Of a DNA stretch of 64,000 nt, positions 43,202 through 52,057 are shown piece by piece. The stretch lies in NCBI GenBank assembly GCA_030600585.1, contig JAUVLU010000004.1:19016-83015 (forward strand), in the 5' to 3' direction. The notes below the pieces were generated by a model. The model ran no database searches. It was not told the origin of the DNA and was given only the letters and a program-made list of their open reading frames with translations. The translations under genes were made by a program, and so were the position numbers. Source of the stretch: Candidatus Cloacimonadota bacterium (lineage in GTDB: Bacteria > Cloacimonadota > Cloacimonadia > Cloacimonadales > TCS61). Position 1 is the stretch's first letter. Each line of letters begins with the position of its first letter.

Positions 43202-44158
43202 ATGAGATTTTTTGGAAAAACAAAAATAGACTTCATTGGAAAAAGAAAAATTGCTTTTGCAATTTCTATAGTTATCATTCTTACAGGAATCGTTTCGCTT
43301 GTAATTAATAAGGGTCCAAAATACAGTATCGATTTTACCGGTGGTGTTTCTATGGAACTTGATCTTACACCTGTAAAAGAAGGTGCTCAAATAATTAAAG
43401 TTCAAGAAATTCGTGATGCACTTACAAATGCCGGTATCCAAGATGCTGAAATCCAGGAAATAAAGGGGACTGAAGGAAAAAAATTTATTCTTATCAAAAC
43501 CCAAAATTTGGGTGATATGCAAGTAAAAACAAGTACAAAAGTAATTAATATTATCAAGAAAAAATTTTCTAATAATATAGATGATGAAACACTGATCCGC
43601 CTTGTGGAAGAAGTGGGACCAAAGATAGGTGAAGAGCTTAAGGGTAAAGCTATTCTCGCTATATTCTGGGCATTGCTTGGAATTATTATCTACATCTGGT
43701 GGAGATTTGAATTTACATTCGGTCTGACTGCTGTAGCTGCCCTTTTCCATGATATTCTTATTACAATTGGTATCTTCTCTCTCTTAGAAATAGAGATCAG
43801 CCTTTCTATTATTGCAGCTCTGCTTACTATCGTTGGTTATTCTCTGAATGATACGATCGTTGTCTTTGACAGGATTCGTGAGGATCTTAAAGTATATAGA
43901 AAAGAATCGTATGGTAATGTAATTAATCACAGTATCAATGAAACACTTAGCAGAACTATTATTACATCACTCACAACTTTTGTGGTTGTTCTCAGTCTTT
44001 ACATCTTTGGCGGATCTGTTATCCATGATTTTGCATTTGCAATATTGGTTGGTGTAATTGTTGGTACATATTCTTCTATCTTTGTGGCAAGTCCGCTTCT
44101 GGTTGAACACTTCAATAAAAGAGAAAAGAAATTGGGAACCCGCGGTAAGAAGAGATAA
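43202..44158 (+). CDS. secF: protein translocase subunit SecF
   Basis: 318 aa. DFTGG motif and LTIVGYSLNDTIVVFDRIRE. Confidence 0.9.
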   Translation: MRFFGKTKIDFIGKRKIAFAISIVIILTGIVSLVINKGPKYSIDFTGGVSMELDLTPVKEGAQIIKVQEIRDALTNAGIQDAEIQEIKGTEGKKFILIKTQNLGDMQVKTSTKVINIIKKKFSNNIDDETLIRLVEEVGPKIGEELKGKAILAIFWALLGIIIYIWWRFEFTFGLTAVAALFHDILITIGIFSLLEIEISLSIIAALLTIVGYSLNDTIVVFDRIREDLKVYRKESYGNVINHSINETLSRTIITSLTTFVVVLSLYIFGGSVIHDFAFAILVGVIVGTYSSIFVASPLLVEHFNKREKKLGTRGKKR

Positions 44159-44193
44159 TCAAAAAACTTGATTTAAATTTGTAAATATAACAA

Positions 44194-44226
44194 AGCCCTT
44201 CAGTGTAAACTGAGGGGCTTTTTTTG
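44194..44226 (+). terminator. Rho-independent terminator after secF
   Basis: agcccttcag-tgtaaa-ctgaggggct stem-loop followed by TTTTTTT. Confidence 0.7.
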
Positions 44227-44900
44227 TACCACGTTCACTCAGCCAAGAAAACTGGCTGAAAATCTTGAACGTGATTTGTTTTTTATCCTTCCGAAGGTTA
44301 TGTAACTTTCATTTATTCTCAACCTTCGGAAGGTTAAATTCACCTCAGTCTTCTCCGCCCCGTTCTCCGCAGTAGCCCGACACTCCATGGCGGGAAAGTG
44401 AACCTGACTCATAATAACATTAGATGCCGCAGGAAGAAAAATTGTCATCCTGAGCGGAGACGAAGGATAATTCACCGCAAAGATTTATGCGCAGTGGCGT
44501 ACGCTAAGTACGCAAAGAAAGACAACTATTGAAAAATCTGTCTTTCTGAACCCCATCCCCAACCCTTCCCCTTAAACTAATGGGAAGGGAGTAAAAAAAA
44601 CTGTCTTTCTGAGGTATCTTTTTGCCTTACCCACGAAGAATCTCTTGGAAGAATCCTCAGCTTTACTCCTCGTAAACAATCGTCTGAGATCACACTCAGC
44701 AACTAAGCCCTTGTACTATTTAACCTTTTTCTAATTGACAACAAACCACCAGCCAAATCTTATCTTGCCAAATTAAGGAGAATTAAAGGGGGTTTAGTAT
44801 CATTGCATCCTTCACCGCTTCGACTCGACGTTTCTCTTTCGAGTCGAAACTCAGAATTATTTTCTAATTGACACTTAACTATTACTTTATCAAATTCGGT
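44227..44900. repeat. about 670-bp pile-up of dispersed palindromic repeats
   Basis: Inverted copy of the 23468-23512 element (44230-44274). Perfect 13-bp inverted repeat ccttccgaaggtt/aaccttcggaagg (44287-44299 / 44321-44333). tgtcatcctgagcggagacgaaggat at 44443. Two ctgtctttctga words (44538, 44601), the second starting a copy of the 15603 MITE. Hairpins cccttccc/gggaaggg and ttcgactcga/tcgagtcgaa. 14-bp direct repeat ttttctaattgaca at 44727 and 44860. Confidence 0.75.
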
Positions 44901-44918
44901 TTTGATTTTAATAATTAA

Positions 44919-45113
44919 CTTGAAACATTAGAATTTTGGAGAGGAAACTTGAGATATATTCAAAAAATTCTTGGACATAAGAATTTAAAAACCCCGATAC
45001 ATTTTTTCAAAACTATGGGGCAGGCAACAGAAATATATACCCATATAACAGAAAAAGGACTTACTAAGATTAAAAGTCCACTTGATAACTTGAATATTGA
45101 GGATGAATTATAA
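44919..45113 (+). pseudogene. intI: 3-prime remnant (about 64 codons) of an integron-integrase-like tyrosine recombinase
   Basis: The frame opens after TAA (44916) with no start codon: LETLEFWRGNLRYIQKILGHKNLKTPIHFFKTMGQATEIYTHITEKGLTKIKSPLDNLNIEDEL*. It contains the LLGH...IYTH box with the catalytic Tyr and the IntI-type tail G..G(V/I).SPLD.L. The N-terminal roughly 250 codons are absent and replaced by repeats. Confidence 0.6.
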
Positions 45114-45189
45114 AGGTGCGTAATAACTCTGATATTGAAGTTATGACGAACCTTTTTGGTGTAACTATAGGTTAGTTATGTGCACCTTT
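45112..45189 (+). repeat. imperfect palindrome directly after the recombinase stub (attI-like candidate)
   Basis: aaaggtgc (45112-45119) pairs with gcaccttt (45182-45189). Inner ataac...gttat words are present. It is followed at 45212-45218 by GTTAGCA, a GTTRRRY-like core. Confidence 0.4.
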
Positions 45190-45256
45190 TATAAGGGCGC
45201 AGCGTACATATGTTAGCAGAAATTAGTTTATTAAACAATAAGGGAAAATAAGTAGA

Positions 45257-46042
45257 GTGGATATGAATAAAGAAATGAAATTTGATTATTTAAAAAGCAA
45301 AATAAAGTTAAACAGCAAAATAATTTTGGAAAAATATAAAGTAGATATTCAAGAGATTATCGAAATATTTAATCTGCAATATGAGTATTTTGAAGAACAC
45401 TTGAGAGTAGCTTATCTTGAATGTTATTTTAATGATGATGAATTTACAAATTTATTAGCTACTGCCTTGAGAAAAAATATGTTTTCTTTTTTTTCTGCAA
45501 TTTTACAAACACAAGAGGGATTAGTTGGTTCTGCAAGGATAGTATTTAGAAATATTTTTGAATTCCTAATTATTGGTAAATATGCGGCAATATCAAAGAA
45601 TATGGAGTTTATTAATAAATGGGAAAAAGGTGAAGAGGTTTCATTAAAATACGAAGTCTTTTCAAAAATTAGAAAGCCAGATTCAGAAGAAATAAAAAAA
45701 CTTTGGAAGACTCTTTGTTCTTTTACACACAGCACTATTTATGCACAACAAGTTGATTTTGATGCAACAAAATATTTCAATGACATTAAATTTAACTTGG
45801 TTTTACTTAAAGTATTTTTAGAAATGAATTTTCACCTTATGAATTCATATTACATAAACAAATCACTTCAATATTATACACAAGTTTCTGATATTTATCC
45901 AGTAAATGAATTTAATGAAATACCTGTAAAAGAAAAAAAGAAATTATTAAAGTTATTGTTCACTAAAACAAAATTAAAGATGGAAAGAGACCCACGTAAA
46001 GTTATTTATGATTATAAGCTCAAATGGGAGATAAAAAAATAG
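45257..46042 (+). CDS. hypothetical all-helical protein (cassette 1, gene A)
   Basis: 261 aa, GTG start (ATG 45263 is an alternative). No firm family. The GSARIVFRNIFEFLIIGKY...LCSFTHS segment vaguely recalls DUF5677/AbiV-type helical domains (speculative). Confidence 0.65.
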   Translation: MDMNKEMKFDYLKSKIKLNSKIILEKYKVDIQEIIEIFNLQYEYFEEHLRVAYLECYFNDDEFTNLLATALRKNMFSFFSAILQTQEGLVGSARIVFRNIFEFLIIGKYAAISKNMEFINKWEKGEEVSLKYEVFSKIRKPDSEEIKKLWKTLCSFTHSTIYAQQVDFDATKYFNDIKFNLVLLKVFLEMNFHLMNSYYINKSLQYYTQVSDIYPVNEFNEIPVKEKKKLLKLLFTKTKLKMERDPRKVIYDYKLKWEIKK

Positions 46043-46149
46043 AATAAACCTAAAATCTATTTCATTTTTTTTATAACGTTTAGCAAGGAGTTGAACTATG
46101 AACAAGCTATTAAGAATCGTGAATTTTCTGAATTTCGTAGGAGATTAAA

Positions 46150-46755
46150 ATGAAATCAAAAAAAACAGTTAATCAAGATGATTTTGAAATAATAATAAAT
46201 AAAGCAATTAATCTATTAAAAAATGGAGAAAAGCGATTAAGCACATCAATATTCACATCAAAAATGAAATATTTAAAAGATTTTACTCCTAATATATCAG
46301 ATACTTTGTCATCTGACTATGGTATAAGTTCCACTAACAAAACTATTGAAACAGACTTCTTTGAAGAAGTAAACTTAATCGAAAAGCTTTTACAAGAATT
46401 AGGATTCCCAGTAAAACTTGCTGATTGGCAAAAAAGTTCAGATGATGAAAGGATGGAGAACATTTATAAAAAGATGAATCGACGTTCTTACGCAATGCAA
46501 ATTTGGAGTTTTTATGCAATTCCTTGGAGATTTAGTAATGATTGTGTTCACCTAATATGGGATCCTGAAGATGTTATGGGAACACCAATAATTAAAACAT
46601 TTGAATTAGAATATTTCATATCTACAGTATCAAATAACTTTGAAACTCAATATAATCAATATAAGAAAAATCAAAAGCAATTGAAATTTTGGATTAAATA
46701 TGGAGTTATCTTAACTGTCGTTGTACTCTTTTTTTTCTACTCTTGGTTCTTATGA
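46150..46755 (+). CDS. hypothetical protein with C-terminal transmembrane anchor (cassette 1, gene B)
   Basis: 201 aa with AGGAG 6 nt upstream. The last 20 residues are hydrophobic (YGVILTVVVLFFFYSWFL). No family recognised. Confidence 0.65.
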   Translation: MKSKKTVNQDDFEIIINKAINLLKNGEKRLSTSIFTSKMKYLKDFTPNISDTLSSDYGISSTNKTIETDFFEEVNLIEKLLQELGFPVKLADWQKSSDDERMENIYKKMNRRSYAMQIWSFYAIPWRFSNDCVHLIWDPEDVMGTPIIKTFELEYFISTVSNNFETQYNQYKKNQKQLKFWIKYGVILTVVVLFFFYSWFL

Positions 46756-46782
46756 GTTAATAATGATGAATGTTGAAGAAAA

Positions 46783-46913
46783 TTCTGCTAACAAACGTGT
46801 CAGCGGGTTAGCTGGTCGGTGTTCTTTGGCTGAATCGTTTCGATTCAGGTTTGGTCGGTTTGTTCGGTCGTGATCGTTCCGATCCCGCCGCACACGCCAA
46901 ACATTATGTGAAA
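46783..46913 (+). repeat. attC-like structured repeat (about 130 bp)
   Basis: TGCTAAC (46786-46792), 3-4-nt spacer, cgtgtcagcggg (46796-46807), central perfect hairpin ctgaatcg-ttt-cgattcag (46830-46848), cccgccgcacacg (46884-46896, pairs with 46796-46807 leaving one extra base), spacer ccaaac, then ATTATGTG (46903-46910). Confidence 0.55.
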
Positions 46914-46920
46914 AGGAGGT

Positions 46921-47955
46921 TGTATCGAGAATTATTTAATTATAAAATATGTTAATAAATTAAGAAATAACCTTTTATTCAAAGAGTGTTTTTTTCCAAC
47001 TAATGAGTGTAACAAAATTGGAAAAGCACATTCAATCCAAAATAATAGATTTCTTATAAAACTAATACAAAATCGTGATGATAAAATTCTATCATTTAAC
47101 AACAAAGAATCATTTTGTGAAACAGGTTATACTCTTGCTGAAATTGGTAGGAAAAAAGCTTCAACTTTTACCGGATTTTGTAATTATCACGACACAATAC
47201 TTTTTACTCCAATTGAATTATATGACTATAAAACTAATAATAAGCAACAAGAGTTTCTATTTTCTTATAGATGTTTAGCTTGGTTTTATTACAATAAAAA
47301 AATGGAATCTCTTATGAATAACAAATATTATGAAATATTCAAATTGAAGGAAAAAGACCATTTACAAAATATTTTTAATATTTATCAACCATATAATGAA
47401 TTTAAAATGTCTAAAATTGCTGATTCATTTAAAACTAAATATCAGCTTGCTTCTATAACTGTAAATGAATTAACTGAATTTAAAGAAATTATGAATACAA
47501 ATTTAAAGAGTAAGAATTACGATTCAATTTCTACAAAAGTTTTAATATTCCAGAATGAAACTCCAATATGTGCGACATCAGTTATTTACTTAAAAAGAGA
47601 TTTAGAGGGAAACTTGATTAATGATTATTTAGATTTTAGCAAAAAATTAGAACCAATCTTTTTTAGTGTATTTCCTCAAGCAGGGAAAACATATGTTTTA
47701 TTAAGTTATTTCACTGAAACAAAAAATACATTTTCATTTTTATACAATCAATTTGGAAAATTGACACTAAAACATCAGAAGGTATTAATCACGAGTTTAA
47801 TATTTTCATATATTGAAAATTTTTACACTTCAAACCAATATTGGAAATCAAAGAAGCAAAATTTAAGGAATATATTAACTTCACTATTTAATGAAACTTT
47901 AGAGGAAGCAAATGAGGAACTTGAACTGAATGAAAATGTTAACTACTTTAAATAA
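46921..47955 (+). CDS. hypothetical Cys-rich protein (cassette 2); start codon unresolved
   Basis: The track ORF 47302-47955 is only the distal part. The same frame is open for 130 further codons back to TGA 46909-46911 (…ECFFPTNECNKIGKAHSIQNNRFL…ASTFTGFCNYHDTILFTPIE…) with no ATG/GTG/TTG. AAGGAGG lies at 46913-46919. Confidence 0.55.
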   Translation, partial: CIENYLIIKYVNKLRNNLLFKECFFPTNECNKIGKAHSIQNNRFLIKLIQNRDDKILSFNNKESFCETGYTLAEIGRKKASTFTGFCNYHDTILFTPIELYDYKTNNKQQEFLFSYRCLAWFYYNKKMESLMNNKYYEIFKLKEKDHLQNIFNIYQPYNEFKMSKIADSFKTKYQLASITVNELTEFKEIMNTNLKSKNYDSISTKVLIFQNETPICATSVIYLKRDLEGNLINDYLDFSKKLEPIFFSVFPQAGKTYVLLSYFTETKNTFSFLYNQFGKLTLKHQKVLITSLIFSYIENFYTSNQYWKSKKQNLRNILTSLFNETLEEANEELELNENVNYFK

Positions 47956-48020
47956 TTTTTTCACATAGCTTGTTATTTTAATCCTATCCCGCCAAACACG
48001 CAGAACATTTTTGTGAAATT
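47956..48020 (+). repeat. short attC-like repeat (left arm degenerate)
   Basis: ttttcacata (47958-47967) ... cccgccaaacacgc (47988-48001) agaac ATTTTTGTGAAA (48007-48018). The right half aligns with 46884-46913. Confidence 0.45.
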
Positions 48021-48038
48021 TATTAGTAAGGAATAGCA

Positions 48039-49079
48039 ATGTATGATGAAAATGTAGAAGAAATGTTATCAGAATTGATAAATACTTTTGGAGTAAGAGA
48101 ACCTGTTAAAAGTGATTTAATTGCTATAAATATTAAAATGGGTAGAATCGAAAAGGCAGTAAATATGATTGTTAATATATTTAACTTACCTATTAACATT
48201 AATATTATTCGAGTTTCAAGAGATTCATTAAACAATTCAAGAAATTCACCAATAAGCTTTTTGGGTTTCAACAATTTGATTGCTCAAGTCCAAATTCCAA
48301 ACGATTTACCCATATTCGGTTCATCAACGTTAAACGGTTACCCAATAAATATAAAAGTCAGTCAAATTAACAAATCAAATCCAGATATATTTATTATGAT
48401 AATGGCTCACGAAATTTCGCATATTCTGCTTTACTCGCTACGTCACCTTCAAAAAACAAATGAAATCTATACTGATATCATTGCAATCTTGTTTGGGTTT
48501 CAAAATATTTTTAAAAAAGCACGAAAAATAATAACAACTTCTTTTGAGCAAGGACTAATAAGTTCTACAACAAAAACTAACACAACTACTTACGGATATT
48601 TAACTGATGCTCAATTTAATTCGGTTCTTGATAGAATTAAATCAGAATTGATTATAAACAGGAAAAACAAATCATCTTTACATAACAAACTCAAAGAAAG
48701 TCAAAAACAAATCTGCACATATAAAAGAATGATTACAAAATTCAAAAAAGGGCTAACTATTTTGACAAAAAACTTAAAGACTAACATATCCGAATTTGAT
48801 GGAAAAAGAATTTCTGTTTTTTATCAGCCAGGATTCATTGATAATATTGAAACACCACTTCAAAATCAAAAAAAAATAGAATTGATAGCAAACTTCAAGC
48901 AAGATTTAGTTCATTATAATTCACATAATTTGGATCAGTTGAACTGTTATTTAAAATATCTATTAGAGTTAAACATTGACATAAAGAATTTAATATCTTC
49001 CGTTCACAAAGATATAAAATTAATGAGTAAAAACATTGTACTTAAAAGGAGAATCATTTTTGGATTATTTAATAAATGA
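48039..49079 (+). CDS. hypothetical HExxH zinc-metallopeptidase-like protein with coiled-coil C-terminal half (cassette 3)
   Basis: 346 aa. IMIMAHEISHILLY...NEIYTDIIAILFGF (HExxH plus a downstream Glu). The C-terminal roughly 170 aa are K/N/L-rich and helical. Confidence 0.7.
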   Translation: MYDENVEEMLSELINTFGVREPVKSDLIAINIKMGRIEKAVNMIVNIFNLPININIIRVSRDSLNNSRNSPISFLGFNNLIAQVQIPNDLPIFGSSTLNGYPINIKVSQINKSNPDIFIMIMAHEISHILLYSLRHLQKTNEIYTDIIAILFGFQNIFKKARKIITTSFEQGLISSTTKTNTTTYGYLTDAQFNSVLDRIKSELIINRKNKSSLHNKLKESQKQICTYKRMITKFKKGLTILTKNLKTNISEFDGKRISVFYQPGFIDNIETPLQNQKKIELIANFKQDLVHYNSHNLDQLNCYLKYLLELNIDIKNLISSVHKDIKLMSKNIVLKRRIIFGLFNK

Positions 49080-49092
49080 ATATTTTGAAAGA

Positions 49093-49175
49093 AAATTTCA
49101 CATAACAAACAGCTCAGTGCTAAGATTGAGAGAAGATATGAAAGAGCACCGCAGCTGCCAACCATTATACACAAG
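49093..49175 (+). repeat. attC-like structured repeat (about 83 bp)
   Basis: ACATAAC (49100-49106), spacer aaa, cagctcagtgc (49110-49120), cagctgcggtgc complement at 49146-49157 with one extra base, spacer ccaacc, then ATTATACAC (49164-49172). Confidence 0.55.
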
Positions 49176-49258
49176 AAGGAATTAAAGCTTTACAGTAATA
49201 TAAGAATACCAACATTTGACACCAGAAGCTAAAAGGAGTCTATCGTTGGAGGTGAGAC

Positions 49259-50023
49259 TTGAGGAATTATAAGGAAGAAATCATAAAAAAGATTGGAGAA
49301 TATTTCTCTACTGAACAAACATTTACTCGCAAAGAGTTGTATGATTTCCTGGAGTTAAATTTCTTCCCAAATCTAAAAGAAACAACTTTTCGTTGGCGAA
49401 TATACGAATTAAAGAAAACAAACATAATTGTTTCTGTAACAAGAGGTATATTTAAACTATCTGACAACAAAGAATTGTTTGTGCCAAGCATTAATAATAA
49501 GCTTTCTAAAATCAGCAATTTGCTACAAAAGAATTTTAACTCAATATCTTATTGTCTTTGGAGTTCAAATTGGCTTAATGACTTTTCCAGGCATCAAGCT
49601 ACAAATGAAATAGTATTTGTAGAAGTAGAAAAAGAATTAGTAAATTCTGTTTTCAATTTGTTAATAGATAATAATTTTAAAAATGTTTACATAGAGCCCG
49701 ATAAATTCGTCACGGAAACTTATGTCTCTGAAAATCAAATCTCAATTATTGTAAAATCTCTGATAACCAAATCACCAACACAACCAGTGAAAAATACTAT
49801 TGTTCCGAAATTAGAAAAAATATTGGTCGATCTATTCTCAGACAATAAATATCTCGTTGCTTACAAAGGATATGAGCAAAAGGTCATCTTCAAAAATGCG
49901 TTTGATAAATATCAGTTAAATCTTTCCAGCTTAATTAATTATAGTCGCAGAAGAAAAAAAGACAAACTTATCACGGGTTTTTTGATTACTGAAATAAATA
50001 TTGATGAGAAACTATTGAGATGA
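49259..50023 (+). CDS. abiEi: AbiEi-like antitoxin / transcriptional regulator (type IV TA)
   Basis: 254 aa, TTG start. N-terminal winged-helix-like FTRKELYDFLE...TFRWRIYELKKTNIIVSVTRGIFKL. 4-nt ATGA overlap with the AbiEii gene. Confidence 0.6.
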   Translation: MRNYKEEIIKKIGEYFSTEQTFTRKELYDFLELNFFPNLKETTFRWRIYELKKTNIIVSVTRGIFKLSDNKELFVPSINNKLSKISNLLQKNFNSISYCLWSSNWLNDFSRHQATNEIVFVEVEKELVNSVFNLLIDNNFKNVYIEPDKFVTETYVSENQISIIVKSLITKSPTQPVKNTIVPKLEKILVDLFSDNKYLVAYKGYEQKVIFKNAFDKYQLNLSSLINYSRRRKKDKLITGFLITEINIDEKLLR

Positions 50024-51090
50024 TTAAAACAAGCTCTTATAAGTCAGACTGGATAACAAAACTCAGAAACAAAAAGCGAAAGATAGATCCGATATTATGC
50101 GAGAAGATGATAAGAGCTTTAGGACTTTTGGAGCAATTAGTGATCAGCAATCTGCAATTTGTTTTTAAAGGTGGAACTTCATTGATCTTACTCGTAAAGA
50201 AACCGCAAAGGTTCTCGATCGATATTGATATTAATACGGAAGATTCAAAAGAAAAATTATTAAACATTCTTGAAACAATATGTTCAAATGATTTATTTAA
50301 GCGATTTGAAGAAAATAAAAGAACGAACAGAGGTATCCCAAAAGCTCATTTTAAATTTTATTATGATTCTGTTATAAACGGACGAGAAAATTATATTTTG
50401 CTCGATGTGCTTTTTGACAAACATTCATATCCTATAGTAATTGAAACTCCAATTAAATCTTTCTGGATTGATACTGATGACAATATTACAAAAGTAAATA
50501 CTCCTTCGATTGATTCTATTCTCGGTGATAAACTTACTGTTTTTGCTCCAAATACAACTGGCATTAAATACGAAATCGGTAAATCTATGGAGATGATGAA
50601 ACAGCTTTTTGATATTGGTAGATTGTTCGATCATTTTGAAGATATAGAAGTTGTAGCTACTTCTTTCAAAAATATCGCAAAGAATGAATTAGAATATAGA
50701 GAATCTGCTGATACTACTGATGATGTTTTGCAGGATATTATTGATACAAGTTTGATAGTTTCACAATTTCCTGGTGGAACTAAATCTGATTCTCCTGAAC
50801 TTATTGAGTTGATTGACGGATTAAAACGATTTAAAGCATTTCCGATAGATTTTGCATTCAGAGCAGATGATGCAATTCTTTCTGCTGCAAAAGCTGCTTA
50901 TCTAGCTGCAAATTTTTTGAATAAGGATTTCGCCATAATTGAGAAATTTTCAAATAACGTAAAATATAATGAACCCAACTTTACTGATAACTATGAACAT
51001 CTTAAAAAGTTAAAGAAAAGAAAAATTGAAGCTTATTATTATTGGTGCAAGGTATTTGACTTATTAATATTTGATAAAAGATCTAAGTAA
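50020..51090 (+). CDS. abiEii: nucleotidyltransferase AbiEii/AbiGii toxin family protein
   Basis: 356 aa. FVFKGGTSLILLVKKPQRFSIDIDI is the AbiEii (DUF1814) nucleotidyltransferase motif. Confidence 0.75.
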   Translation: MIKTSSYKSDWITKLRNKKRKIDPILCEKMIRALGLLEQLVISNLQFVFKGGTSLILLVKKPQRFSIDIDINTEDSKEKLLNILETICSNDLFKRFEENKRTNRGIPKAHFKFYYDSVINGRENYILLDVLFDKHSYPIVIETPIKSFWIDTDDNITKVNTPSIDSILGDKLTVFAPNTTGIKYEIGKSMEMMKQLFDIGRLFDHFEDIEVVATSFKNIAKNELEYRESADTTDDVLQDIIDTSLIVSQFPGGTKSDSPELIELIDGLKRFKAFPIDFAFRADDAILSAAKAAYLAANFLNKDFAIIEKFSNNVKYNEPNFTDNYEHLKKLKKRKIEAYYYWCKVFDLLIFDKRSK

Positions 51091-51283
51091 AAAATGAAAA
51101 TAGTTCTTTTAAATAAATAGTGTGGGCTTAATTTTATTTGATGGGAAACCTGGATTAATGAAAATCCTATCCATAACTTATTGTGTTGCAACGAAATCCT
51201 TATTTGATAGTTATTTGATAGAAGAATGAAAATGAGAGATTTAGAAACTAACAAAGAGAGTTTTTCATATTCTTAACTAATAT

Positions 51284-52057
51284 CTATTTAGTAATTCCTC
51301 TATCAGAGTCATCTATGAAATCGAGGAATATTTTTTGTTCCTTTGTGAGATTCGGTATCTGTAATGCTTTTTCCATTGCCTGGCTTGTATTTAATTCGGA
51401 TCTATAAAACAATTTATAAACATCTTTTATAGATTTAATAGATTCTTTAGAGAATCCGCGTCTTTGGAGTCCAACACTGTTCAATCCCATTAGTTTATAT
51501 GGAGATCCTTCTCCGCGTGTGTATGGCGGAATATCTTTTTTAATGCCGGATTTCCCGCCGATGAATGCATAAGTTCCAATTTTTACAAATTGATGAATAG
51601 CAACCATGCCGCCGATTATCACGTTATCTTGAACATGAATATGACCGGCGAAATTAACAGCATTGGCAATAATGAGATTATTACCGAGAATACAATTATG
51701 AGCAACATGAGAATAAGCCATGAAAAGACTGTTATCACCGATCTGTGTAGGTTCATCCATTGTTGCAGATTTATTAATTGTACAGAATTCCCGGAAAGTA
51801 TTATTATTCCCGATTATCAATTGTGTCGGCTCACCTTTATATTTCAAATCCTGAGAATCTGTTCCAATAACTGCTGAATGAAAAAACTTGTTGCTGTTTC
51901 CAATTGTAGTGTGTCCATCGATAATAACACTGGAAACAAGCTCATTATCATCACCCAATTTTACGTTTTCATGGATAATACAAAAAGGTCCGATAACACA
52001 ATTTTTACCAATTACAGCTTTTGGATCTACAATTGCGGTTGGATGTATTTTCGTCAT
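51284..52057 (-). CDS. lpxA: acyl-ACP--UDP-N-acetylglucosamine O-acyltransferase
   Basis: 257 aa. MTKIHPTAIVDPKAVIG, hexapeptide repeats, and a C-terminal helical domain containing GLQRRGFS. Confidence 0.9.
   Translation of the reverse strand: MTKIHPTAIVDPKAVIGKNCVIGPFCIIHENVKLGDDNELVSSVIIDGHTTIGNSNKFFHSAVIGTDSQDLKYKGEPTQLIIGNNNTFREFCTINKSATMDEPTQIGDNSLFMAYSHVAHNCILGNNLIIANAVNFAGHIHVQDNVIIGGMVAIHQFVKIGTYAFIGGKSGIKKDIPPYTRGEGSPYKLMGLNSVGLQRRGFSKESIKSIKDVYKLFYRSELNTSQAMEKALQIPNLTKEQKIFLDFIDDSDRGITK

Follow-up and report, generated by a model that had tools for sequence, protein, structure and literature searches.

Probable cassette-closing sites with covarying stems in a Cloacimonadota genome point to an apparently undescribed integron variant

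The two attC-like sites considered here are very probably recombination sites, each closing a cassette (cassettes 1 and 3) in a small array of the integron type that is flanked by secF and an lpxA-like gene. They lie in a window of 64,000 nucleotides (the whole stretch of DNA that was analysed), which corresponds to contig C48:19016-83015 of a 2.58-Mb MAG with 89 contigs and ~35% G+C. Recombinase loci of almost the same sequence assign this MAG to Candidatus Cloacimonadota and, within it, to the genus of Ca. Tenebribacter davisii. Judged from sequence comparison, these sites and the recombinases associated with them, which are related to IntI and do not carry its insert, point to an apparently undescribed integron variant in a Cloacimonadota lineage. 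The original prediction had spoken of an attC-like layout. What stands of it is that the sites bound cassettes, are conserved in structure and would serve an attC-like function, whereas the arm that carries the bulge, the crossover box and the recombinases all differ from the canonical system.

An island of co-oriented cassettes

The island is 7 kb long and is flanked by secF (43202-44158) and the lpxA-like gene (51284-52057, minus strand). It contains, in this order, a mosaic of short repeats (44160-44900), a recombinase stub, an attI-like region and six co-oriented ORFs, which are separated by site 1, a decayed site and site 2. The stub (44919-45113, plus strand) comprises the last ~64 codons of a long, insert-less, IntI-related tyrosine recombinase, with an intrusion of 11 codons and no start codon. 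Adjoining it is the attI-like insertion site, S0 (45114-45219, plus strand), which is made up of a hairpin, the conserved word GTAACTATAGGTTAGTTATG, the L'-like GCGCAGCGTA and then CATATG↓TTAGCAG (45207-45219), the predicted crossover (marked by the arrow, here and below) falling between 45212 and 45213.

Cassette 1 (45213-46903, plus strand) carries the ORFs 45257-46042 and 46150-46755 and would be closed by site 1; its start, TTAGCAGAAATT, is complementary to the left box of that site, AAATTCTGCTAA. Site 1 itself (46783-46913, plus strand; attC-type, 117 nt), recognized by covariance model, fold and sequence, consists of the left box ttctgcTAAC (46783-46792), the spacer AAA, L'' (46796-46807), a variable tip (46808-46883), L' (46884-46896) with the bulged C46891, the spacer CCAAAC and A↓TTA, with the crossover between 46903 and 46904. 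Cassette 2 (46904-48007, plus strand) has a frame open from 46912 to 47955 and ends in the decayed site; its start, TTATGTGAAAA, is complementary to TTTTCACATAg at 47958-47968. That decayed site (47958-48010, plus strand) has the left box cacaTAGC, has lost L'' and the tip by deletion and retains the right half cccgccaaacacgc-agaac-A↓TTT; its fold is weak and it does not match the covariance model R1 described below. Cassette 3 (48008-49164, plus strand) holds a single ORF (48039-49079) and would be closed by site 2, its start tTTTTGTGAAATTT being complementary to the left box AAATTTCACAtaa of that site at 7 of 8 positions. Site 2 (49093-49175, plus strand; attC-type, 64 nt), recognized in the same three ways, comprises the left box tttcacaTAAC (49096-49106), the spacer AAA, L'' (49110-49120), the tip (49121-49145), L' (49146-49157) with the bulged C49152, the spacer CCAACC and A↓TTA, with the crossover between 49164 and 49165. 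Cassette 4 (49165-51192, plus strand), a DUF6577 and AbiEii pair by Pfam (ORFs 49259-50023 and 50020-51090), starts at TTATACACAAG, and its own site is reduced to the left-box remnant CTTATTGTGTTGCAAC (51177-51192). The match between left box and cassette start in the window therefore holds for cassettes 1-3 and is partial for cassette 4.

As a side observation, the reading frame in cassette 2 stays open from 46912 onwards, immediately past the site-1 crossover, and the earliest ATG, GTG or TTG in it is found at 47302. ATC and ATT codons come after an AAGGAGG stretch (46914-46920), suggesting that translation may start in a non-standard way.

All the words that had originally been quoted for the two sites are correct, base for base: cgtgtcagcggg at 46796-46807 and cccgccgcacacg at 46884-46896 (reverse complement cgtgt-gcgg-cggg) for site 1, and cagctcagtgc at 49110-49120 and gcaccgcagctg at 49146-49157 for site 2. 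The 8-bp apical hairpin of site 1, ctgaatcg/cgattcag, is likewise present at 46830-46848, and the extra base does sit on the 3' arm of the plus strand in both sites (C46891 and C49152).

The relation of left box to cassette start extends to other arrays. When the left box of each site was compared with the 8 nt that follow the TTA of the previous site, the 33 consecutive pairs gave a mean of 5.79/8 reverse-complement matches, with 15 pairs matching at 7/8 or better; under shuffled pairing the mean was 3.36/8, and none of 2000 trials exceeded 4.3. In the 7-cassette array of G001:C93 the match is perfect from end to end. The DUF6577-AbiEii cassette, moreover, recurs in a congener and in metagenome contigs, with the DUF6577 protein 78-87% identical. 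Among contigs with a readable upstream junction, the homology always starts at TTATACAC, directly behind an A or G (A/G↓TTATACAC), after at least five different upstream sequences, four of them ending in A (site 2 of the source genome G000, G006:C55, L132 and L135/136) and that of L145 ending in G. In L133 the same cassette stands directly behind attI (...AGATG↓TTATACAC), which brings the number of contexts to six. Homology between orthologous sites covers the left flank and the whole of the site and breaks off right after ATTA, and a compensatory change, CGTGTC/CACACG (L025) against TGTATC/CATACA (L121), was found between orthologues; site pairs with a common right flank have unrelated interiors. 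The left-box match, the occurrence of one cassette in many contexts and the sites that travel with the upstream ORF together define the cassette as running from TTA through the ORF or ORFs and the site to the A. From this boundary and this ownership it follows that a site belongs to its upstream ORF, that the crossover lies between A or G and TTA, and that the polarity is that of canonical integrons.

The clusters of sites are all co-oriented, lie behind ORFs and are headed by attI copies, and the cassettes include abortive-infection and other candidate defence genes. Other events also occur: chimeric sites exist (the site after the AbiE cassette in L133 matches site 2 in its right half only), and some cassettes terminate in a bare left box.

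We find it hardly credible that the sites are generic palindromic intergenic repeats, such as REP, BIME, MITE or terminators, without any role in cassette exchange. Such repeats would agree with the many dispersed copies, with the location after stop codons, which is also that of terminators, and with the other repeat families that are plentiful upstream of the island. They would not agree with left boxes complementary to their own cassette start, with a cassette boundary that is precise across contexts, with the confinement of the sites to co-oriented arrays headed by attI copies or with stems that no T-run follows; dispersed copies of the REP, BIME or MITE kind come without cassette boundaries or a dedicated insertion site, and the sites have both. 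The copies outside the island sit in the same kind of cassette arrays, and the objection foreseen in the original prediction, that the elements might belong to a generic palindromic family, thereby falls away.

An ORF-less cassette of ~230 nt, with A↓TTA at both ends (TTAAACAAC, 17 nt, GTTGTTTAAT-GCCGGCGTGCCAC...GTGGCACGCCGGC-A↓TTA), lies behind many sites and is often array-terminal, in the source genome (e.g., C58:2171-2400 and C85:51499-51730) and in congeners; further examples begin at L024:18703 and L125:3679. Positions 1900-2045 of L118 (G006:C55), between attI (CATATG) and the AbiE cassette, contain a 32-nt palindrome (ATAGGCAAAA...TTTTGCCTAT) and a hairpin with a 13-bp stem ending in ...GTCCC-ATTA, and look like another small ORF-less insert at the crossover point. 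In Ca. Tenebribacter davisii (L024:4602-10794), the first two cassettes past attI encode proteins of 1124 and 903 aa with T9SS sorting domains, far larger than those of typical integron cassettes.

Covarying stems and strand polarity

Genome scans with hand-written regular expressions and stem scores were too noisy (the genome is AT-rich, and its reversed sequence gave more hits), and a covariance model was used instead. This model, R1, was built on alignment A1, which consists of 13 seed copies picked by eye from other contigs. In the genome-wide search it scored site 1 at 80.7 bits (E 3.8e-19) and site 2 at 62.5 bits (E 8.8e-14), and it found 46 sites over 23 contigs of the source MAG, both window sites included. 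The relatives yielded hundreds of sites, with 30-51 in each of several congeners and up to 47 in other genera of the family, and most other families of the order yielded zero. Only one weak match was obtained on the loci of distant homologues in Bacteroidota, which marks R1 as lineage-specific. Neither the window nor L023 gave any match when scanned with Rfam; the published attC covariance model (IntegronFinder) is absent from Rfam.

The claim that the stems covary is well borne out by the further genomic copies, in which compensatory changes appear in both the 13-site and the 54-site alignment. Among the 13 seed sites, 96.8% of cells are paired, against 15-41% with the partner column slid; for the 54 sites, drawn from 21 loci, the value is 93.1%, and the slid-partner controls over both alignments gave 15-44%. 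Eight of the nine L-box stem pairs have changed on both sides in the seed sites (and likewise across the 54 sites), none of 500 shuffles of the seed alignment matched the observed covariation score, and doubly changed cells number 82 against 17 expected among the 54 sites. The outer stems of the seed copies read CGTGT, CAGCT, CACCT, AGTGC, GCTAT and AGCAC. That the stems are kept complementary by compensatory substitutions implies an intramolecular hairpin or cruciform as the functional form.

Both window sites follow one order on the plus strand: the left box ...TAAC, the spacer AAA, a 5-bp outer stem (CGTGT or CAGCT), C, the inner stem and the tip, and then, in the 3' half, the inner stem, G, the extra C, the complementary 5-bp stem, the spacer CCAA(A/C)C and ATTA. 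The extra C thus sits between the G and the outer stem; on the minus strand it becomes a bulged G, and the A.C next to it becomes a G.T wobble. The C:G pair beside the bulge is invariant (52/52) and the bulged base is C in 51 of 54 sites, and so the conserved asymmetry is C versus GC. The cag/gcgg asymmetry originally reported as identical in both sites is indeed present in both, and only its left C:right G pair and the one bulged C are conserved family-wide; the A.C after the bulge is common to 14 of 54 sites, and the whole cag/gcgg word is not a family feature. The left box contains AAC in 53/54 sites, and the base preceding TTA is A in 52/54. The spacers (AAA or AAG versus C-N-AAAC-A) are unpaired and asymmetric, 3 versus 6 nt, and the length of the sites, 50-153 nt, varies through the tip. 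For sites of 117-130 nt a rival fold exists, with the L' arm paired to bases within the variable region.

These compensatory changes also bear on a second alternative, in which the sites act as double-stranded Xer-type sites: only the right half (the L' arm, the 6-7-bp spacer and the TTA box) would then serve, as an attI-like 11-6-11 duplex core, and the left half would be dispensable. The attI and the right half of the sites do have a common layout, GCGTGGC..-spacer-TTARRRR, and the recombinases score against the XerA, XerC and XerD models almost as well as they do against IntI. A duplex-only mechanism, however, would account neither for the compensatory changes that link L'' to L' nor for a bulge that is invariant nor for the one-strand G.T bias, and we regard it as very unlikely.

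Returning to the folded attC-type site, the ORF strand is its top strand, as judged by the polarity of the arrays and the comparison of orthologues. At the non-Watson-Crick positions, G.T is favoured on the minus strand, with A.C on the plus strand, by 26 to 8. In 52/54 sites the R box terminates in C.A on the plus strand and in T.G on the minus strand. The minus strand also folds better, by a mean of 0.65 kcal/mol (59 sites versus 35, p = 2e-4). The same kind of G.T bias is known for canonical attC bottom strands (PMC5027507).

The plus (ORF) strand was also considered as the recombining strand and was rejected, though its AAC on the 5' arm and the bulge opposite resemble a canonical bottom strand. 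The interiors of the sites travel with the upstream ORF, and homology stops at the right box; furthermore, G↓TTA of attI stands on the ORF strand, and an exchange with the plus strand would invert the cassettes.

The recombinase pair and the attI copies

The intact platform was found in contig G001:C93, where a 278-aa recombinase, a 378-aa recombinase, an inverted repeat, GTAACTATAGGTTAGTTATG, CACATATG↓TTAGTAGC and seven cassettes follow one another, all co-oriented. Every cassette there is an ORF followed by a site, and CATATG↓TTA lies ~100 nt past the stop codon of the long recombinase. The order of recombinase pair, attI and co-oriented array is repeated in G011:C56, G002:C3, G013:C84 and L082. 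As in integrons, an attI that adjoins the recombinase gene is the insertion point of the first cassette, in G001 beside the intact gene and in the window beside the stub.

Both recombinases have Phage_int_SAM_4 and Phage_integrase domains. TIGR02249 is the family that they match best, and both fall below its cut-off of 265 (long, 216.8 bits; short, 174.7 bits), so that neither passes as an IntI by this model. Alignment with the true IntI of relatives showed that both are devoid of a 29-residue and a 13-residue segment, which correspond to the IntI-specific insert. Smyshlyaev et al., who classified the tyrosine recombinases, describe the insert as "not fully conserved" in their integron-like subgroup (PMC8138268). 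The long recombinase has all the catalytic residues. The short one (L024:2512-3348 in G001:C93, upstream of the long one; homologues in G006, G026, G027 and G029) has Ser for Arg I (AGLSLSE or AGLTPSE) and S..K for H..R in box II (ILKNSFAVH), keeps the tyrosine, and by these substitutions looks like a dedicated non-catalytic partner. Five genomes (G001, G008, G010, G013 and G026) have 27-51 sites and the recombinase pair and no canonical IntI, and G020 has a canonical IntI and zero sites of the studied type. Since the sites abound where the pair is present without IntI, and an IntI occurs without the sites, we infer that the pair is the cognate enzyme.

This distribution has to be weighed against an alternative that we consider improbable, namely that the sites are ordinary attC of a classical integron or of CALINs (attC clusters without an integrase), recombined by a canonical IntI, and that the tandem recombinases are unrelated neighbours, e.g., an array-adjacent mobile element. 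For it speak the canonical IntI genes above the TIGR02249 cut-off in G002 (same genus, frameshifted), G020, G021 and G024, the three sites of the studied type that lie 2.5-4.6 kb from the canonical intI in G002:C175, and the short-recombinase gene itself, which stands just after a site in G010 and G021. Against it, the intI of G002:C175 has its own attI (GCGATG↓TTATGCC), one cassette and a canonical attC, and the array of studied sites does not begin until past another attI, a solo copy of the S0 type, CATA(C/T)G. The five pair-bearing genomes and G020 argue in the same direction, and the position of the bulge and the ATT core are unlike what IntI uses (PMC5027507). On this layout of G002:C175, the classical system and the studied one are side by side yet distinct. 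At the loci of the intact canonical IntI in three family members (L020-L022), no array was visible or the contig was cut. The canonical IntI of the one congener or of the three family members could nevertheless act in trans.

The classical integron in the same genus (L023:52-2284 of G002:C175) has an intI split by frameshifts into three ORFs, and a site of the non-canonical type is located 20 nt past the intI stop codon, at the contig end.

An intact pair recombinase or an IntI was not found in the source genome by tblastn and profile search, which returned XerC/D-like genes and stubs only. The stub of the window (44919-45113) is matched by TIGR02249 at the C-terminus only, with 22.8 bits, and its tail, ...TEIYTHITEKGLTKIKSPLDNLNIEDEL, shows near-identity to the C-terminal end of the intact recombinases (360-378 aa) that congeners encode. 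We considered the stub as a remnant of a true IntI as well and rejected this, as it has no DNA similarity to the intI of the congener and its tail fits the insert-less 360-378-aa recombinases.

The window array is one of several multiplied arrays that combine such a stub with an attI. There are ~25 copies of the first 100 nt of this unit in the source genome, together with 12 full copies of the attI word, each of which is followed by 1-3 sites on the same strand; in at least 8 of the 12, the 8-9 nt after G↓TTA can pair with the left box of the site that comes next downstream. Of the long gene, nothing but 3' stubs is left in this genome, and the arrays are therefore probably frozen unless an enzyme acts in trans.

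The repeated unit, at 44813-45219 of the window, combines a promoter-like TTGACA stretch, the 3' stub of the long recombinase and attI, and other copies of it were seen on contigs C11, C24, C36, C39, C41, C53, C57, C69, C75 and others of the source genome. In many MAGs (L041, L045, L047-L051, L057-L059, L063, L071, L084 and L088), the contig ends 50-400 nt past the stop codon of the long recombinase, which is consistent with assemblies breaking at a multi-copy stub and attI.

Proposed recombination and comparison with known systems

In the mechanism that we propose, the minus strand would be the recombining strand. Its predicted fold has an R box of 9-10 bp closed by the T.G wobble, an unpaired spacer of 6 versus 3 nt, an L box in which a single bulged G separates 5 bp from another 4-7 bp, and the variable tip of 10-100 nt as the cap. 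Cleavage would take place in 5'-TAA↓T, with exchange against 5'-TAA↓C of the attI-like site. The enzyme would be the co-oriented pair of IntI-related tyrosine recombinases encoded directly upstream of attI in congeners, of which the short one, without Arg I and His/Arg II, may occupy those places in the synapse where no cleavage is made. We would go further, at even chances, and propose that Cloacimonadota, and possibly other FCB (Fibrobacterota-Chlorobiota-Bacteroidota) bacteria, hold a separate integron lineage. Here, a heteromeric, insert-less, IntI-like pair, one active and one permanently inactive, would replace IntI and read a mirrored attC (the bulge on L', a bottom-strand R' with AAT, an R box closed by a wobble), strand choice would be reached by a different structural solution, and a dozen or more attI copies per genome would coexist, within a genus, with a classical IntI/attC integron.

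The most direct comparison is with the canonical attC sites (the 59-base elements, aadA1 and the Vibrio VCRs). In common with them, the studied sites are imperfect R''-L''...L'-R' palindromes in which pairing is conserved and sequence is not (93-97% of cells paired), with an unpaired central spacer (R/L) and variable terminal structure, and a total of 50-150 nt. Each site lies behind the ORF of its own cassette, the R'' box ends in AAC, as the canonical RYYYAAC does, and is complementary to the start of that cassette, the crossover falls one base before TT in the distal box, and the G.T pairs favour the bottom strand.

The differences concern the core and the bulge. In place of the R' core GTTRRRY, the crossover box is ATTA, with G before TTA only at attI junctions; the bottom strand consequently reads 5'-AAT instead of 5'-AAC, and a C.A mismatch (top) or T.G wobble (bottom) ends the R box. 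The spacers are of 6 versus 3 nt, whereas those of the canonical sites are of ~5-6 nt on each arm. One base is bulged here (C on the plus strand, G on the minus strand), against two or three there, and it lies on L', the arm of the cleaved triplet (the 5' arm of the bottom strand), whereas the canonical bases lie on L''. Canonical bottom strands have 5'-RYYYAAC in R', spacers of 5-6 nt and 2-3 extrahelical bases near L'', on the arm opposite the cleaved triplet, usually G and T and 6 bp apart (PMC5027507). Two controls agreed with this placement: both bulges came out on the 3' arm of the bottom strand in attC aadA1 (in a sequence that matched thousands of plasmids at 100%), and the bulges did so too in the canonical attC at L023:2190-2284 (GCATAAC...GTTATGT), beside the genuine IntI of the congener contig G002:C175. 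The bulge of the studied sites is thus on the arm where it hinders a canonical IntI, and the mechanism cannot simply be copied from IntI.

Among integrons, strand choice, and hence the expressible orientation of the cassettes, is attributed to the insert of IntI (I2 helix) together with the positions that the extrahelical bases occupy. The same cassette logic without the insert, with the bulge on the other arm and with a dedicated inactive partner would offer a natural experiment on strand selection. Integron-type gene capture would be extended to Cloacimonadota, a phylum without such a report in the literature searched: no paper combining Cloacimonadota, integron and attC was found in the open literature. 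The platform would escape detection tools that depend on IntI.

Sedentary chromosomal integrons and CALINs provide a second comparison, and their "inverted" group (Treponema denticola type) has intI co-oriented with the cassettes. This group also joins a recombinase gene, an attI and co-oriented, mostly promoterless cassettes, with integrase-less arrays elsewhere in the genome. Here, by contrast, the recombinase is without the IntI insert, scores below the TIGR02249 cut-off and is paired with a paralogue whose catalytic residues have degenerated; attI is present about a dozen times per genome, each copy with a 3' stub of the recombinase and 1-3 cassettes; and cassettes can be large, as with the ORFs of 1124 and 903 aa in G001.

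Finally, XerC and XerD acting on the folded ssDNA of the CTX phage attP, and the Xer-dependent dif modules, also rely on two paralogous Xer-like recombinases with one cleavage being enough, and on CTX attP they can act on a single strand that is folded and has an asymmetric centre. Unlike these systems, the one studied here involves no dif and no phage, the sites are borne by cassettes, co-oriented and provided with covarying stems, and the inactive partner appears to be permanently inactive, not regulated.
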